Shown here: piece after piece, positions 1 to 6,950 of the stretch
How the letters are laid out: each line of letters opens with the position of its first letter
Numbering within the stretch: position 1 is the first letter of the stretch
Source: a virus
Taxonomy: Duplodnaviria > Heunggongvirae > Uroviricota > Caudoviricetes
Virus record (IMG/VR): IMGVR_UViG_3300029851_000103
Length of the DNA: 6,950 bases
Direction: 5' to 3' (one strand)
Translations under genes and position numbers: made by a program
The notes under the pieces: model-generated
What the model saw: only the letters and a program-made list of their open reading frames with translations
Database searches by the model: none
What the model was told of the DNA's origin: nothing

Positions 1-224
1 CCGCCATAACGACCACTTTCCAGATCGTTCACTTCCACTTTGTTTTTCAGCTTATTATCAACTTCAGTTTTTGTGTATCTGGTGCTGATATCCTGCTTTG
101 CACTGGCCATATCAGTCTGAAGCGTTGATACTTTTCCGTTAATAGAGGAAATATCTTCCTTTGCTTTACTAACATCTCCCTTCAGCGTGGTGATGTCTCC
201 CGGAATTACTGTTGATGTAGCCAT
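1..224 (-). CDS. Hypothetical protein, N-terminal 74 codons only (runs off left edge). Begins MATSTVIPGDITTLKGDVSKAKEDISSINGKVSTLQTDMASAKQDIS...; predicted coiled-coil-like, possibly tail-fibre-associated.
   Basis: Hand translation of the minus strand from ATG at 222..224 is open to position 2 with no stop. A GAGG Shine-Dalgarno sits 7 nt upstream and overlaps the TGA stop of ORF93; only 9 nt separate the two genes. Not in the ORF track, presumably because it lacks a stop inside the window. Family not recognised. Confidence 0.45.
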   Translation of the reverse strand, partial: MATSTVIPGDITTLKGDVSKAKEDISSINGKVSTLQTDMASAKQDISTRYTKTEVDNKLKNKVEVNDLESGRYG

Positions 225-233
225 TTCTCTACC

Positions 234-515
234 TCACATCCAGCCACGAAGTTGATGCTCAACAGCAACCGCGTATTCATCGAATAATGACGATATTTGC
301 GTATCCTTAATAATGCGCACGTTTACAAAATATCCATCTTCCTTAACACATACCGGTTCGCCATCTTCAGTCAGCTCTCCGGTTTCTTTGTACACGTTAC
401 CTATCACATCAATCAGAATATCATCCTGCATCGACTCGTCATTATAATAGCCAATACTTCCCATAAAGGCCGAAAAGTCGGCCCTGTCGGCAAATTTGAG
501 TGTTAAATCTTTCAT
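234..515 (-). CDS. Small acidic hypothetical protein (93 aa), translationally coupled to the side tail fibre gene. Function unknown; candidate fibre-associated accessory protein or chaperone.
   Basis: ORF-track ORF 234..515. Its ATG (plus-strand cat 513..515) overlaps the stf stop (plus-strand tta 515..517) as TAATG on the coding strand. By my count 19 Asp+Glu versus 8 Lys+Arg (net about -11), one Cys. No resemblance to lambda Tfa that I can recognise. Confidence 0.55.
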   Translation of the reverse strand: MKDLTLKFADRADFSAFMGSIGYYNDESMQDDILIDVIGNVYKETGELTEDGEPVCVKEDGYFVNVRIIKDTQISSLFDEYAVAVEHQLRGWM

Positions 516-2917
516 TAGATTGACTCCCCCATCTGAGCATCAGTCAATGCCTTGTGCCAAATACGCAGATTTCGAACGTGTCCAAATAGGTGACGGTTGC
601 CGGATGATGATTGACCACCAATATTAATGAAGCCTCCTGTATATTTGTGTTTTTTATAAGGAGAAACTACCTTAGCACCAATATTACCGTTAACCACAAC
701 ACACAATTCTCGACTTTCTGTGAATCTAAAGCCGATAATGCTTTTTCTCTCTGGTCGTTCTATAACGCTTTTATATTCTATTTTAGTGCCTTTACCATTT
801 GTAATGATTGCGCGTGCTCCCAAAGATGTATACCCCAAATACATATAACTTTCATCTGCAATTTCAGTTGTATCTCCCGTAGTGGAAATATTAAGAATAC
901 GTGCGCTACCTTCTTTGTTTGGCGATTCATCCCAATTGGTATTAACTTCTGCTAATGAACTAATAGCGGGATTGCACCAATTTAGAGAAATGGGGACCGT
1001 TACAATATCGCTGGCGCGTGTTACAGGGGATGCGCCTGTTATAATAAACGATGAAGCGCATGCCCCACCTTCAACTTGAGGGGTCGCAATATAAATATAA
1101 TCATCCGCGCCAGTGCCCACTCCTTTTGCCGGGGCATACTGAACCATTCCACCTATCATATTTTCTGTATCAAGTGCCTTAATTGTCGCCTCAAAAAAGA
1201 TCCATTTGCTTGCTTCATCTTTAACAGCCCTTGCAGTAATGCGATTAGCGGCACCACCCGTCTTATCAATAGATAAATCTGTCGTATTTAAGTAAGCGTC
1301 ACCTAAGAATGTGTAGGTAGAACCATCATAGTTTTCAAATCGTAATCGGCATCTTAAATTTGGAGTGCCACTTTGCACCCTGCATGATATGGTTACATAC
1401 TTTTCTCCGCCTGTTACATCAAAACCTTTACTGCCGGAAACGGTTACTATGTTAATCGCTGAAATTTGCCCTACCATTTCTGGTTTTAATGTAAATTTTG
1501 CGTACTGGAATCCGAAATCATCTACACCTGATGCACTTAAGATCATATTTGACGACTTGTTCCATTTAGTCGGATTTGTTGAATTGATTAGCAGGTTAGT
1601 TCTTTGCCCCTCAATAAGCAGGCCATCACGTTCAAATCGTGGCTCGTCAATGGCAGCCTCTGTCAGCACACCAGATTTATTAATGTAAGTTGCTTTCGAT
1701 GCGCGTTTAAACTTTACAATCTTGTCGCCAGGCATTGTTATTTCATCGTCGCCAATAACAATTTTTTTATATGATGGCGAAAAGCCCGTAATCATATCCA
1801 GTGAATCATTAAACGGTATCCACACATCGGGCAACGGCTGCAAAACTTGTTTATACGGCTCCGCTGCCTGGCTTGCATACTCTCTGGCTGCGTCTTCACT
1901 TGCTTTAGCTGCTGTCTGGCTTGCTGCCGATGCTTGCGCCGAGTTCGCCGCCGCAGTCTCGCTCGCCTTTGCGTTGGTTTCACTGGTTTTTGCTGCTTTT
2001 TGACTGTTAGCTGATGCAGTGGCAGAAGCAGCCGCCGCGCTTGCAGAACTGGCTGCGGCACTCTCGCTTTGGGCCGCTGCATCCTGACTGCTTTTCGCCG
2101 CAGTTTCACTGGCTTTGGCATTCGTTTCGCTGGTCTTCGCTGCCGTCTGGCTGGACTTTGCGTTAGTTTCACTCGTCTTCGCAGCTTTCTGGCTGTTAGC
2201 CGCAGCAGTTGCTGATCCAGCTGCTGAAGTCGCAGAACCGGCTGCCGCGCTCTCGCTTTGGGCTGCTGCAACCTGGCTGTTTTTTGCCGCAGTTTCACTG
2301 GCTTTGGCATTCGTTTCGCTGGTTTTCGCTGCCGTCTGGCTGGACTTTGCGTTGGTTTCGCTCGTCTTTGCGGCTGTCTCGCTATTTTTCGCGTTGGTTT
2401 CTGATTTTTTGGCTGCTGTCGCGGAGTTTGCCGATGCAGTCTTTGAGGTCGCTGCCGCCTGTGCACTATTAGCTGCATTCGTTTCTGAGGTTTTCGCCGC
2501 GTTCTTCGATGATGCCGCTGCAGTTTCGGATTTCTTTGCCGCCGCTGCGCTCTGAGAGGCGGCTTCAGCGTTGCGTGCCGCTTCTTCCACCATTTCCTCA
2601 AAACGACGCAATGCCTCCGGCATGACATCATCTTCCGTCATGGCACCGAGAAAATCATTCAGCGTCCCCGGCTTAGAATCTTCATACACGGTGATGGTCC
2701 CGGCATGTGAAGGCGAAAAACCTTCAACCAGCAGGATAACGCTGTACTGGCCATACTCAACATCCATACTGTAACGCCCGGCTTCATCCGGATTTTCTGA
2801 GGCCAGCGTGTTCACTACCACCGTGGTGCTGTTACGTTTTGCTTTCAGCTGGATTGAGCAGTTCTGTACCGGTTTTCCTGTGCCGTCTTTCAGTACACCT
2901 GAAATCTTTACTGCCAT
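515..2917 (-). CDS. stf: Side tail fibre protein (lambda Stf-like N-terminus; Ala/Ser/Thr/Lys-rich repeat shaft; C-terminal LamG/ConA-like lectin-type receptor-binding domain).
   Basis: 800-aa ORF. N-terminus MAVKISGVLKDGTGKPVQNC...GRYSMDVEYGQYSVIL...HAGTITVYED matches the lambda side-tail-fibre N-terminal domain as I recall it. Residues ~110-330 are repetitive (KTSETNAKSSQTAAKTSETNAKASETAAK...). C-terminus ...HLFGHVRNLRIWHKALTDAQMGESI resembles the terminal strand signature of LamG-like jelly-roll domains. A G-rich SD (GGGGGG) lies just upstream of the ATG. Confidence 0.88.
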   Translation of the reverse strand: MAVKISGVLKDGTGKPVQNCSIQLKAKRNSTTVVVNTLASENPDEAGRYSMDVEYGQYSVILLVEGFSPSHAGTITVYEDSKPGTLNDFLGAMTEDDVMPEALRRFEEMVEEAARNAEAASQSAAAAKKSETAAASSKNAAKTSETNAANSAQAAATSKTASANSATAAKKSETNAKNSETAAKTSETNAKSSQTAAKTSETNAKASETAAKNSQVAAAQSESAAAGSATSAAGSATAAANSQKAAKTSETNAKSSQTAAKTSETNAKASETAAKSSQDAAAQSESAAASSASAAAASATASANSQKAAKTSETNAKASETAAANSAQASAASQTAAKASEDAAREYASQAAEPYKQVLQPLPDVWIPFNDSLDMITGFSPSYKKIVIGDDEITMPGDKIVKFKRASKATYINKSGVLTEAAIDEPRFERDGLLIEGQRTNLLINSTNPTKWNKSSNMILSASGVDDFGFQYAKFTLKPEMVGQISAINIVTVSGSKGFDVTGGEKYVTISCRVQSGTPNLRCRLRFENYDGSTYTFLGDAYLNTTDLSIDKTGGAANRITARAVKDEASKWIFFEATIKALDTENMIGGMVQYAPAKGVGTGADDYIYIATPQVEGGACASSFIITGASPVTRASDIVTVPISLNWCNPAISSLAEVNTNWDESPNKEGSARILNISTTGDTTEIADESYMYLGYTSLGARAIITNGKGTKIEYKSVIERPERKSIIGFRFTESRELCVVVNGNIGAKVVSPYKKHKYTGGFINIGGQSSSGNRHLFGHVRNLRIWHKALTDAQMGESI
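1912..2478 (-). repeat. Intragenic tandem repeat, unit 189 bp (63 codons), about 3 copies: two near-identical over their first ~80-100 bp plus a more degenerate upstream copy. Encodes the Ala/Ser/Thr/Lys-rich shaft of Stf.
   Basis: The plus-strand string cagtttcactggctttggcattcgtttcgctgg occurs at 2101 and again at 2290 (offset 189). The protein shows two 63-aa units each starting KTSETNAKSSQTAAKTSETNAKASETAAK. and ending ANSQKAA. Region 1912..2100 aligns more loosely. Confidence 0.8.
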
Positions 2918-2928
2918 ATTCCCCCCAC

Positions 2929-2955
2929 AAAAAAGCCCACCTGAACCGGCGGGCT
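2929..2955 (-). terminator. Putative intrinsic (rho-independent) terminator downstream of lom, immediately upstream of the stf start.
   Basis: Minus-strand transcript: 8-bp stem (AGCCCGCC / GGUGGGCU, including one G-U wobble that exists only on the minus-strand RNA), 6-nt loop GGUUCA, then a run of 6 U (plus-strand A-run 2929..2934). Lies 26 nt after the lom stop. Confidence 0.45.
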
Positions 2956-2981
2956 GTCATAACACTGTGTTACCTGGCTAA

Positions 2982-3581
2982 TCAGAATTTATAACCGACA
3001 CCCACGATGAAACCGTCAGTGCGCCAGTCACCACTGCCAGAACCTTCATAAGCAATATCAATGGCCACGGATTCGGTCGGGTTAAACTGCACGCCAGCCC
3101 CCCACGCCAGAGACGTGTTGCTGTGGCGACCGTCATCACTTCCGGTCAGCACATCGTGCGTTTTCCCCTTGTTGTCAGTTACGCGAAGGTAATCCCCGGA
3201 AAAAGTCGAAACACGGCTGTAAGCCATACCCGCCATCGCATACGCGCTGAACCATTCATTCACGCGCACAGACGGCCCCGCCATCACGCTGAACCAGCGG
3301 TTACGCACGGAATCTTCATGCCAGCTGGTATCGCTGTAACGGGTCAGCTGGCGATTCTTGTCTCCTGCATAGCTGAATGACGTCACCAGCCCCAGCGTAT
3401 CCGTAAACTCATAACGGTATTTCACGTTAATCCCGTTCAGATCATCACTGCCGGGAACGTTGGTCCGGGCATGAAGATACCCCGCGCTCAGCGTGGACTG
3501 ATGTTCAGATGCCCATGCAGGCGCACCGGATACGGCCAGACAAATGGCTGCGGACAAAATGGCGGCATAAAGTTTACGCAT
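2982..3581 (-). CDS. lom: Lom outer-membrane protein (Ail/Lom/OmpX/PagC family beta-barrel), lambda lom homologue.
   Basis: 199-aa ORF. N-terminal signal peptide MRKLYAAILSAAICLAVSGAPAWA followed by SEHQ. Ends in ...GFIVGVGYKF with terminal aromatic residue typical of outer-membrane beta-barrels. Sequence closely matches lambda Lom as I recall it. GAGAGG SD 5 nt upstream of ATG. Position directly after J matches lambda gene order. Confidence 0.92.
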   Translation of the reverse strand: MRKLYAAILSAAICLAVSGAPAWASEHQSTLSAGYLHARTNVPGSDDLNGINVKYRYEFTDTLGLVTSFSYAGDKNRQLTRYSDTSWHEDSVRNRWFSVMAGPSVRVNEWFSAYAMAGMAYSRVSTFSGDYLRVTDNKGKTHDVLTGSDDGRHSNTSLAWGAGVQFNPTESVAIDIAYEGSGSGDWRTDGFIVGVGYKF

Positions 3582-3602
3582 AATTACCTCTCGCTTTTCT
3601 GC

Positions 3603-3631
3603 AATAAAAAAGGCACCATTTCTGGTGCCCT
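3603..3631 (-). terminator. Intrinsic terminator between J and lom.
   Basis: Minus-strand transcript: perfect 7-bp stem GGCACCA/UGGUGCC (plus strand 3612..3618 and 3623..3629), extendable by a G-U pair, GAAA tetraloop, followed by UUUUUU. Begins about 20 nt after the J stop codon. Confidence 0.55.
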
Positions 3632-3650
3632 TATATGGGTTATAACAATT

Positions 3651-6600
3651 TCAACGAATACTGATGCCGGAAGCGGCTTTTTTGGTCACAATCACCGTAC
3701 AGTCGGTGATATTACCTGCCCACTGATTGCCTTTATGGAAAACCTTAAACTCCAGAGTGACGCTTCCCCTGCCACTCGGCATATCAATAACCGCACTGTA
3801 GCTACCGGGAATGGCCCCTTTAGTTTCTCTGGATGCGATTAATACACCGTTTTTGCGAACTTCAAAACCATAACCCGTGTATCTTGTACCTCCCGGGTTA
3901 TTACCACTTCCCGGATCGCTATACGCTATTCCGTTAAAGATAATGGGCGGAATAATGATTTGACGGTCAAAGTTATGATCATCGCTGATGGTGACTGTAA
4001 CCGTCCCGTTTGGTGTTTCCGTGTTACCCCACGTACCAGCCTGTTTCGGGAATGATTTGGATACAGCTTTAACGAAGTCACCTCTGACCTGAGTCGCCTC
4101 CAGCATGCCCTTAATCGTACAGTTTTCATTTACCGTGACATTGTTGAGCGTCCCGGCGTTCGCATTCACTCTGCCACTGATATCCGCATTTTTAGCGGTC
4201 AGCTTTCCGTCTGATGTCAGGGAAAATGCCGGTGGATTTCCACCACTGGTAATGGTCGGGGCCGTCAGGCGCTTCAGGAACACGTCGTTCATAAATATCT
4301 GATTGCCCTGCGCCACAAACATCGGCGTTTCATTCCCGTTTGCCGGGTCAATAAACGCGATACGGTTAGCGGCAACCAGAAACTGGCTCAGCTTGCCTTC
4401 TTCCGTGTCCTCCATGCTGAGGCCAATACCCGCGACATAATGTTTGCCGTCTTTGGTCTGCTCAATTTTGACGCCCCACATGGCATTCCACTTATCGTTA
4501 GCGTCCTGCCACTCTTTCGAAAACTCCTCCAGTCTGCTGGCGTTATCCTCCGTCAGCTCGACTTTTTCCAGCAGCTCCTTGCCGAGATGGGATTCGGTTA
4601 TCTGGCCTTTGAAAAAATCCAGGTAACCTTCCGCATCATCGCTCGCCTGACCGACAGCCTCCACGAATGCCGATTTGCCAACGGTGTTCACACTGCGGAT
4701 ATAAAAGTAATAATCATGGCCCGGTTTGATATTGATACTGGCGGCTATCCAGTACAGCGCCGTACCAAGATAGCGGGCTGTGGTTTCAACCTGCCTGATA
4801 TCGGTAATCCGCTTTTCCGAGAACCAGAACTCAAACTGTACCGTCGGGTCATAAACGGCAAGATGCGGCGTGGCGGTTATCTGAAAATAGCCCGGCGTCA
4901 GCTCAATCCTCGACGGTGCTGCCGGTGCGGCAATCCGGAACGATACCGACGCCGGATCGCCCTGCTGCCCCCACGCATTTACCGCCCGGACTGTCAGTCT
5001 GTAGTTCCCCAGCGCCAGTTGCGTGAAGCGGTATGTGGTTTCCGTCGTCCGGGCCGTGCTGACCAGCCGCTCACTGCCGTCATCCGCTGTTACGGTCAGA
5101 CGGAGCAGGAAGCTCACGCCCTTCACCACCTTCGGCGTGTCCCAGCGCGCCAGCACCTGATATTCCCCGCTGTCTGCGGTGACTTCGGCGGTCAGGTGCT
5201 GCACCGCTGGCGGCGTGACACCATTCACCGTGCCGCTCTGGTCGCCGTCAAAGTGCGCCCCGTTATCCACGATGGCTTCTTTTTCCGGTACATGCTGCAC
5301 GGCAGTGATGGCATACGTGCCGTCATCGTTCTCACGGATACTCACACAGCGGAACAGGCGCTGACGCAACGTCGGCAACTTCAGCCCCCACACACTGTAT
5401 TCTGCAACGCCGTCAGGAACCCGGTTCACTTTCACCTTAAGTCCGTCGGTGACGGACTGAACCTCCACGCTGACCGGATTACCACTTCCGTCAACCAGGC
5501 TTATCAGCGTGGTACCGGAGGATGGCAGCGTGATTTCACGGTCGAGCGTCAGCGTCCGGGTCTGGCTGTTCACCGCCAGCACGCGACCACCGGTGCTGAT
5601 ACCGGCATAGTCATCATCGCAGATTTCAATGACATCGCCCGGTACATGGCGAAGCCCTTCAGCACCCACGCTGAAATCCACGGTCTGCGTCTCCAGCAGT
5701 TCAGTTTTAATCAGCCACAGCCCGGCGCGGTGTGCCTGCCCCCGGCTGGTACAGCCAAAGGCATCCATCTTCGTGACATTACGACCGTAACGGACAATGG
5801 CCTGCGTATCTTCAACAAGCTCTGTCGCCGTCTCCCAGCCGTTGTTCGGGTCAATCCAGTTCACCTCAACGGCATTATGGCGGTCCTTCAGGGCGCTGAA
5901 GCTGTAGCGGAACGGCGCGCCATCATCCGGCATCACCACATTACTGCGGTTATAGGTCCACACCTTATCTGATGGTCGGTCCTGCACGAACGTCAGCGTC
6001 TGCCCGTTCCATACCGGCATACAGCGCATCGCCGAGCAGAAATCACTGAGCACATCCCACGCCTTACGCTGCGTGGTCAGCCAGGCATTACAGGTGATGC
6101 GCGGCTCCGTGCCGCCAAAACCGTCCGGCACTGACTGGTCGCAGTACTGGCCGATGACATACAGCGCCCATTTATCCACATCCGCCGCACCAAGACGTTT
6201 CCCCATGCCGTAGCGCGGGTGGGTCAGCATATCCCACAGACACCAGGCCGGGTTGTTGCTGTATGCCGGCTTAAACGTTCCGTCCCAGATACCGCTGTAT
6301 TGCCGCGTCTGCGGGTTATAGTTCGACGGCACCTGCAGAATGCGCCCGCGAAGATGATAATTACGGCTCACCTGCTGGCTGCCGAACTGCTCCGAGTCCA
6401 CCTGCACGCCGACCAGTGCCGTGTTCGGGTAGCACTGTTTCACATCGATGATTTCGGTGTATGACGACCAGAGCGTTTTGTTCTGCAGCTGGTCTGTGGT
6501 GCTGTCCGGCGTCATCCTGCGCATCCGGATATTAAACGGGCGCGGCGGCAGGTTACCCACCACCACCGAGGCCAGATACTGCGAGGTGGTTTTGCCCTTA

Positions 6601-6869
6601 ATGGTGATGTCTTTTTCCGTCACCCAGCCACCGTTACGTTGTATCTGAACCAGCAGACGGACTTCCGACGGATTCCTGTCACCCTTTGAGGTGGTTTCCA
6701 CCAGTGCCTGTACACCGAAGGTAAAGCGCAGACGGTCGATGTTTGCAGACGTAATGGTGCGGGTGATCGGCGTGTCATATTTCACTTCCGTACCCAGCAC
6801 CGTCTCGGAGCCGGAGGATTCAAACCCCTCCGGCGGTGTCTGCTCCTGCTCACCGGCACGGAACACCAC
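3651..6869 (-). CDS. J: Host specificity protein J (central tail fibre / tip attachment protein), 5'-truncated. J homology continues to 6875, where it abuts the IS629-like end; the first ~65 codons are not in this window. The C-terminal ~150 aa diverge from lambda J.
   Basis: 1072-aa ORF-track ORF. Translation ...[49 protein letters not shown]... onward matches lambda J from about residue 66 with only scattered substitutions over ~1000 aa. The apparent start at 6867..6869 is an internal GTG (Val in lambda J), not a native start. J-like codons (gtc acg) run to 6870..6875 and are directly followed by the IS terminal sequence. Confidence 0.9.
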
Positions 6870-6875
6870 CGTGAC

Positions 6876-6950
6876 TGAACCGCCCCGGGAATCCTGGAGA
6901 CTAAACTTCCTGAGAAAGAGGTAAACAGGATGACTAAAAATACTCGTTTT
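6876..6950 (+). mobile_element. IS3-family insertion sequence, IS629-like (IS629/IS1203/IS3411 group): left terminal inverted repeat and 5' end. The element continues beyond the window.
   Basis: Sequence TGAACCGCCCCGGGAATCCTGGAGACTAAACTTCCTGAGAAAGAGGTAAACAGG ATG ACT AAA AAT ACT CGT TTT. It starts with the TG dinucleotide typical of IS3-family ends, has an AAGAGG SD before an ATG at 6930, and the encoded N-terminus MTKNTRF matches my recollection of IS629 OrfA. J homology stops abruptly at 6875. Confidence 0.72.
6930..6950 (+). CDS. IS629-like transposase OrfA, first 7 codons only (MTKNTRF...).
   Basis: ATG at 6930..6932 preceded by AAGAGG SD with ~7 nt spacing, located ~55 nt inside the IS terminal repeat as in IS3-family elements. 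Confidence 0.6.

Follow-up and report, generated by a model that had tools for sequence, protein, structure and literature searches.

Interruption of the tail-tip gene J of a lambdoid prophage by an IS629-type insertion element

The question raised by this locus is why the tail-tip gene J of a lambda-like E. coli prophage breaks off 75 bp before the end of the available DNA, and what has become of the gene. The DNA is a stretch of 6,950 bp (IMG/VR virus record IMGVR_UViG_3300029851_000103), hereafter the window, which was analysed over its whole length. From the raw sequence it had been predicted that an IS629-like element is inserted into the 5' region of J. Based on the alignments, junction searches and domain assignments presented here, we consider it very probable that an element of the IS629/IS1203/IS3411 group transposed into J between nucleotides 189 and 190, duplicating the trinucleotide GAC, and that the gene would thereby have lost its function.

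The break point in J and its setting in the tail operon

On the minus strand, positions 6875..3651 translate as a single open, J-like frame of 1074 codons plus a stop; the listed ORF (3651..6869) begins at a GTG. Across the junction the window reads ...ggaacaccaccgtgac|tgaaccgccccgggaatcctggag..., and from the junction to its last base, 6950, ...ggaacaccaccgtgac|tgaaccgccccgggaatcctggagactaaacttcctgagaaagaggtaaacaggATGactaaaaatactcgtttt. By megablast, window 1..6875 matches positions 12131..5257 of an uninterrupted relative (L004, GCA_958313665.1) at 100.000% identity, free of mismatches and gaps, and L006, L007 and L008 match at 99.94-100% identity. Each of these alignments ends at window 6875, as do the matches to complete E. 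coli genomes (at query position 176, which is window 6875) and to lambda itself (J02459 15694-15869, 97.7% DNA identity around the junction). The boundary between J and non-J at 6875 is exact, and lies where the original prediction had placed it. L004 carries an intact J of 1137 codons (5068..8481), in which window position 6875 is nucleotide 190, and the break falls between codons 63 and 64 (...TEGNTNISG |). The empty site in L004 reads ...ccaccgtgac|accggagatgttgg (...gtgac|accggagatg), the filled site in the window ...gtgac|tgaaccgcc, and the two diverge exactly at 6875/6876. Sixty-three J codons (64 counting the duplicated one) lie past the IS and 1074 are kept in the window, close to the split of about 65 and 1070 codons first proposed.

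The identity of the gene is clear from its uninterrupted relative, in which six gpJ-specific Pfam domains score above threshold (FNIII-A_GpJ, Phage-tail_3, Ig_J, Ig_J_second, Phage_Tail_Tip and Ig_GpJ_C) and which aligns by phmmer with chain J of PDB entry 8iyk (8iyk_J, E = 0, query 1-1136, chain 1-1131). This full-length, collinear similarity to gpJ belongs to the uninterrupted relative; the window retains residues 64-1137 only. Compared with lambda gpJ (PDB 8iyk, 8iyl, 8k35, 8xcg and 8xci), the relative is near-identical through hub, FNIII and fibre regions over residues 1-1136, but its C-terminal receptor-binding region diverges, with substitutions after about residue 960 in the part of the alignment examined, and the receptor may therefore differ; the J of the window, unlike that of lambda, is broken. 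The features of the window are as follows; L013, L014 and L015 are full-length copies of the element, and L016 is a metagenome contig carrying the other junction.

515..2917, minus strand: side tail-fibre gene, intact, 800 aa, downstream of the broken J (Pfam phage_tail_N, E = 1.2e-68)
2982..3581, minus strand: lom-like outer-membrane gene, intact, 199 aa, in the same operon downstream of J (Pfam Ail_Lom, E = 5.8e-119, full length)
3651..6875, minus strand: 3' portion of the tail-tip/host-specificity gene J (codons 64-1137 and stop), without start codon and ribosome-binding site
6864..6869, minus strand: two consecutive in-frame GTG codons (6869..6867 and 6866..6864), the only start-like codons near the junction and candidate, though improbable, restarts
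6873..6875: GAC, the left of the two target-site duplicates (codon 64, GTC, when read on the J strand), from the 3-bp overlap of the window and L016 on L004
6876..6900, plus strand: left terminal inverted repeat of the IS629-type element, TGAACCGCCCCGGGAATCCTGGAGA, matching the right end at 23/25 positions (IRL/IRR of L013; right end in L016)
6876..6950, plus strand: first 75 bp of an IS3-family (IS629 group) element, inside which the window stops (75/75 identity to L013, L014 and L015)
6930..6950, plus strand: first 7 codons (MTKNTRF) of the transposase gene orfA, ATG at 6930-6932, opposite to J (AGAGG 8-12 nt upstream; identical to the OrfA start of L013)

The window holds J'-lom-tail fibre, the distal part of a lambdoid tail operon. 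A protein look-up found identical copies of the 800-aa tail-fibre protein on 11 contigs, and gave contigs with the same prophage. The closest complete genome is that of the urinary isolate E. coli KE55 (L002, 98.0% identity), and the prophage relatives in KE55 and in L004 adjoin pinQ, ydfK and ydfJ, that is, the Qin locus. In KE55 (L002 3917-5920) J is intact and the orthologous tail-fibre gene is called by NCBI a pseudogene missing its C-terminus; set against the J break described here, members of this Qin-site prophage family therefore differ in their tail-gene disruptions.

Several other traits of the window and its relatives were recorded. Within the tail-fibre gene, positions 1949-2383 (minus strand) contain a 189-bp tandem repeat (2.3 copies, 83% matches) whose unit of 63 codons keeps the reading frame, and in which periodicities of 42 bp and 21 bp are nested; the product is probably a fibre-shaft module in repeated form, and its copy number could vary. 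Position 1 of the window falls in the 5' region of a gene called 'tail fiber domain-containing' (234 aa; window 1-224, minus strand), and at least 6 independent draft contigs (L005-L010) break about 100 bp or less from position 1, which points to a repeat boundary common to prophages; taken with the IS at the opposite end, these breaks suggest that the window is a whole short-read contig. A 510-codon, ATG-initiated ORF runs antisense to J (4440-5972, plus strand) and is most likely a by-product of the codon composition of J. In the draft contig L005 (GCA_009894545.1 WXIQ01000130.1, 3480-7891), J is broken up into three called ORFs; some of its segments are duplicated and overlap, and one stretch is 97.4%, not 100%, identical to the window; this suggests recombination of two J alleles, or misassembly. 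An Rfam scan of the whole window gave no family above threshold.

The inserted element and its two junctions

To the right of 6875 the window does not continue as J. Its last 75 bases match IS copies perfectly (75/75, E = 1e-30 with 28 Gb searched), far past chance, and a match of at least 99% is found in 2,026 E. coli records. The five full-length copies that were fetched all measure 1310 bp, and the three with the identical 75-bp end (L013, L014 and L015) are identical to one another throughout, bounded by TGAACCGCCCCGG...CCGGGGCGGTTCA; at the present site, 75 bp of the element are seen in the window and 54 bp in L016. Its terminal repeats are of the IS3-family form (5'-TG ... CA-3'), the element beginning in the window with TGAACCGCCCCGGG and ending in L016 with ...CCCGGGGCGGTTCA, and the two termini are complementary at 23 of 25 positions. 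The window holds orfA codons 1-7 only, in the direction away from the retained J that had been foreseen; the rest of the IS3 architecture, two overlapping ORFs joined by a programmed -1 frameshift, is predicted from full-length copies with identical ends, in which OrfA carries Pfam HTH_Tnp_1 and OrfB HTH_21 and rve, and from the ALIL frameshift pseudoknot found in L013 (RF01497, 120 bits; Rfam). Matching 3-bp duplications flank four of the five fetched copies (CTG, GTT, AAC and CCC).

As to the group within the family, the NCBI annotation pipeline PGAP calls some copies with this left end 'IS3-like element IS629 family transposase' (H82 and H83, both matching 75/75, and H107, 100% over bases 1-795), and others plain 'IS3 family'. 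The L013-type element is 96.3% identical to an 'IS1203 family' copy from O157:H7, from which its left end differs at 2 of 75 positions, and 95.7% identical to a copy in E. coli AH19B041; the latter in turn shares 97.5% identity with the O157 copy, and these values agree with its being one more variant of the IS629 group. Subtypes of IS629 differ by 4-5%, and IS1203 and IS3411 are isoforms (PMC3271280). The 96.3% and 95.7% identities fit this published spread, and the description 'IS629-like' was therefore right. By sequence comparison we assign the element to the IS3 family, IS629/IS1203/IS3411 group, through PGAP-labelled copies rather than an ISfinder reference. Of the 7020 E. coli records that have a match, only 4485 contain a copy that spans 80% or more of the element. 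One of the identical full-length copies, in E. coli 504239 (L015 2001-3310), has the non-matching flanks GAT and CAT, and stands between a fragment of a phage DNA-ejection gene and another ejection-gene fragment with a truncated dsdX; these flanks suggest an IS-associated rearrangement there.

The original prediction had called for the other end of the IS, followed by the missing 5' part of J and a duplication of GAC or TGAC. Representative genomes and metagenome contigs were scanned for the IS right end followed by 0-8 bases and then by the next bases of J. No match was found in the representative genomes, and one was found among the metagenome contigs, namely L016 (ERZ827524 NODE-9455, 3395 bp). 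Its positions 1-54 are the last 54 bp of the same IS and 55-57 are GAC (...ggcggttca|gac|accgg), and from 55 to 3395 it is 100.000% identical to L004 5259..1919, which comprises the missing 5' part of J together with I, K, L, M and H'. In L004 coordinates the window match stops at 5257 and the L016 match starts at 5259, an overlap of exactly 3 bp: GAC is present at window 6873-6875 and again at L016 55-57, and once in the empty site of L004, as in the short direct duplications of IS3 elements. A filled site was reconstructed from window 1..6875, the 1310-bp IS, GAC and L004 sequence, and the 64-aa J stub that it predicts is the ORF at 52..246 (minus strand) of L016. Beyond this stub lie ORFs sized as I, K, L, M and the C-terminus of H by comparison with L004, whose corresponding ORFs carry Pfam TMP/Tape_meas_lam_C, Phage_min_tail, Phage_tail_L, NLPC_P60 and Lambda_tail_I. 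L016 thus contributes H'-M-L-K-I-J', assigned by ORF sizes, and the lambdoid order H-M-L-K-I-J-lom-stf runs on one strand across the two contigs. The two IS/J junctions are thus established, as are the duplication and an uninterrupted site in an isogenic background. Since the junctions are exactly reciprocal and the identity to one prophage is 100%, we infer that the window and L016 derive from one strain or sample; the metagenomic population may also hold the uninterrupted allele. Since ERZ827524 contains the right junction but no left one, the window is itself probably a contig of that assembly.

The copy at this site is assumed, by analogy with the full-length ones, to be entire and 1310 bp long, its positions 76-1256 lying outside both the window and L016. 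In a different arrangement, the IS would be a truncated remnant, or would mark one border of a composite structure or of an inversion or deletion brought about by the IS, and the parts of J would no longer be some 1.3 kb apart. Truncated copies with the same left end do exist, for instance M217, which is cut by a group II intron, and others consisting of bases 1-795 only, and the non-matching flanks of L015 hint at rearrangement of a full copy. However, recombination between two IS copies would leave non-matching flanks, and what is found here is both canonical ends, a perfect GAC duplication and a J that is continuous across it. Reciprocal junctions with a perfect duplication argue strongly against IS-mediated rearrangement, and we regard such an arrangement as very improbable. 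The same pair of observations excludes a chimeric contig end. It might be suspected that the last 75 bases come from an overlap in the de Bruijn graph that was misjoined to a J contig, with no real J::IS behind it, since the window stops just 75 bp into a highly repeated element, as short-read contigs typically do, and since its exact junction recurs in no complete E. coli genome, species-representative genome or phage record. An independent contig, however, shows the reciprocal junction at that very position, and with exactly the 3-bp duplication that a real transposition leaves, whereas a chimeric join would give no matching duplication on another contig; an artefact is hardly credible.

Consequences for J and for the prophage

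The transposase gene of the IS runs opposite to the phage late operon. Translation of J ends after 64 residues at a TGA formed by the terminus of the element, and the remaining 1074 codons are left with no start codon preceded by a ribosome-binding site. With a stub stopped by the TGA of the IS and a remainder without a credible start, full-length J cannot be made, and J is almost certainly knocked out.

A restart within the remainder had been raised in the original prediction, which pointed to the in-frame GTG at 6867..6869 and judged its use unlikely. That codon is present, a second GTG follows at 6866..6864, and no good Shine-Dalgarno match was found in the upstream sequence TTCCCGGGGCGGTTCAGTCACG. 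An N-truncated but assembly-competent J initiated at either GTG, or at a start inside the IS to give a fusion, seems exceedingly improbable. In its favour, none of the 25 IS codons of the window interrupts the J frame, which is open for 45 codons of the IS antisense strand if L013 is taken as the model; two GTGs lie just inside J, and GGCGG stands 10 nt upstream of the first. However, neither a good Shine-Dalgarno sequence nor a promoter-like site accompanies them, the IS antisense strand offers as its only start-like codon a TTG without a Shine-Dalgarno sequence, and the 63 missing residues are ordered in the solved structure of lambda gpJ. Consensus scans for promoter-like and terminator-like sites at the junction and in the IS gave nothing above shuffled expectation, and an outward promoter or an internal terminator in the IS or at the junction was dropped as a candidate for this reason.

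In lambda, J starts tail assembly and carries the receptor-binding domain. Since J initiates assembly, a prophage broken at this point should fail to build tails from its own J; by analogy with lambda biology, we expect that on induction it would fill heads with DNA and yet produce no infectious tails. It could be rescued only by a J supplied from another lambdoid prophage resident in the cell, by recombination, or if the IS were to excise precisely.

The genes downstream of the break probably fare better. Late transcription in lambdoid phages is Q-antiterminated and normally passes terminators, and it therefore probably crosses the IS and reaches 'J, lom and the tail-fibre gene. The prediction that the insertion separates most of J both from its first codons and from the upstream late-operon transcript can thus be followed for the coding sequence, which is split, and probably overstates the case for the transcript. 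On lambda biology, the lesion is most likely translational in the main, rather than transcriptional, and lom and the 800-aa fibre gene are probably still transcribed and may be expressed.

Related insertions, rarity and meaning

Inactivation of a prophage structural gene by an IS629-group insertion is a known kind of event, documented in O157:H7 (PMC3271280). Prophages account for 62% of the IS629 copies in O157:H7 genomes, with duplications of 3-4 bp (PMC3271280), and insertions of IS629/IS1203/IS3411 in lambdoid prophages of O157:H7 and other STEC have been described (PMC3271280, citing Ooka et al. 2009; PMC10810198). The present insertion resembles these in its IS group (1310 bp, with TGAACCGCCCCGG... 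ends), its 3-bp duplication within that 3-4 bp range, its prophage target and the strain-specific disruption of a prophage gene. It differs in its left end, which belongs to the variant given by PGAP as 'IS629 family' or simply as 'IS3 family' and is not that of the O157:H7 'IS1203 family' copy, and in its surroundings: the window is without an EHEC marker, and the prophage relatives occupy Qin/ydfJ in non-EHEC strains. The enterohaemorrhagic E. coli setting suggested in the original prediction found no support here, given these differences and a closest complete genome from a urinary isolate.

Only two complete-genome records span J and the IS, and in both the IS is at another position. In E. 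coli AH19B041 (NZ_CP196316.1, L001 4205-5514), a 1310-bp element of the same group lies in the same orientation in the 5' end of a lambda-type J, which NCBI calls a pseudogene 'missing N-terminus', with the 3-bp duplication CTG. It is nevertheless an independent event, 28 bp nearer the start of J (about J nucleotide 162), with a different IS variant (95.7% identical, as above) and a J allele that shares 93.9% identity with window 4134-6875. In E. coli O157:H7 MB9-1 (NZ_CP040107.1, L003 3407-4716), the same IS group is again found in the same orientation in the I-J region of a lambdoid late operon, with the duplication GTT; here, however, an 'IS1203 family' copy occupies the I-J intergenic spacer, 42 bp upstream of the annotated J start, and the J ORF is intact. 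The MB9-1 insertion may affect J expression without breaking the ORF.

Three independent insertions in one orientation thus fall within about 235 bp, at J nucleotide 190 (window), at about 162 (AH19B041) and 42 bp upstream of J (MB9-1). This could reflect a preferred target for IS629-group elements in the 5' part of J and the I-J spacer, or selection for tail-inactivating insertions that immobilise the prophage and keep its lom and tail-fibre genes, although we consider either very unlikely. The shared orientation arises because the query design forces it. A rough estimate assuming uniform insertion (in 5,426 genomes, about 22,800 IS places and about 8,300 holding this J segment, joined within 625 bp and counted in one orientation) gives about 2 expected cases, and 2 were observed; a hot spot at the 5' end of J was accordingly rejected, expectation and observation being equal at this precision and offering no evidence for enrichment.

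Searches of 5,426 complete E. coli genomes, of 185,579 species-representative genomes and of 50,697 phage records gave no instance of the exact junction, and the left-junction 38-mer does not occur in the species-representative genomes or the JGI/ENA metagenome contigs. A protein look-up likewise gave no exact record of the truncated J product, whether taken from the GTG at 6869 or as run-through to 6950. Given flanks that match uninterrupted copies at 100% identity and a junction not found elsewhere, the insertion is a recent, lineage-specific event.

The prediction made from the raw sequence, as to the identity of the IS, the GAC duplication and the position in J, could be verified fully from public data. 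In annotation, the J ORF of the window should be entered as a pseudogene, with an IS629-group element as the cause of its interruption. Being specific to one lineage and found in none of the 5,426 complete E. coli genomes, the insertion offers a clean marker by which strains could be tracked in the source sample. It adds one more example of IS629-type elements in prophage decay, with little significance past annotation; by the standards of lambda biology, the prophage is to be scored as probably unable, alone, to make infectious particles.
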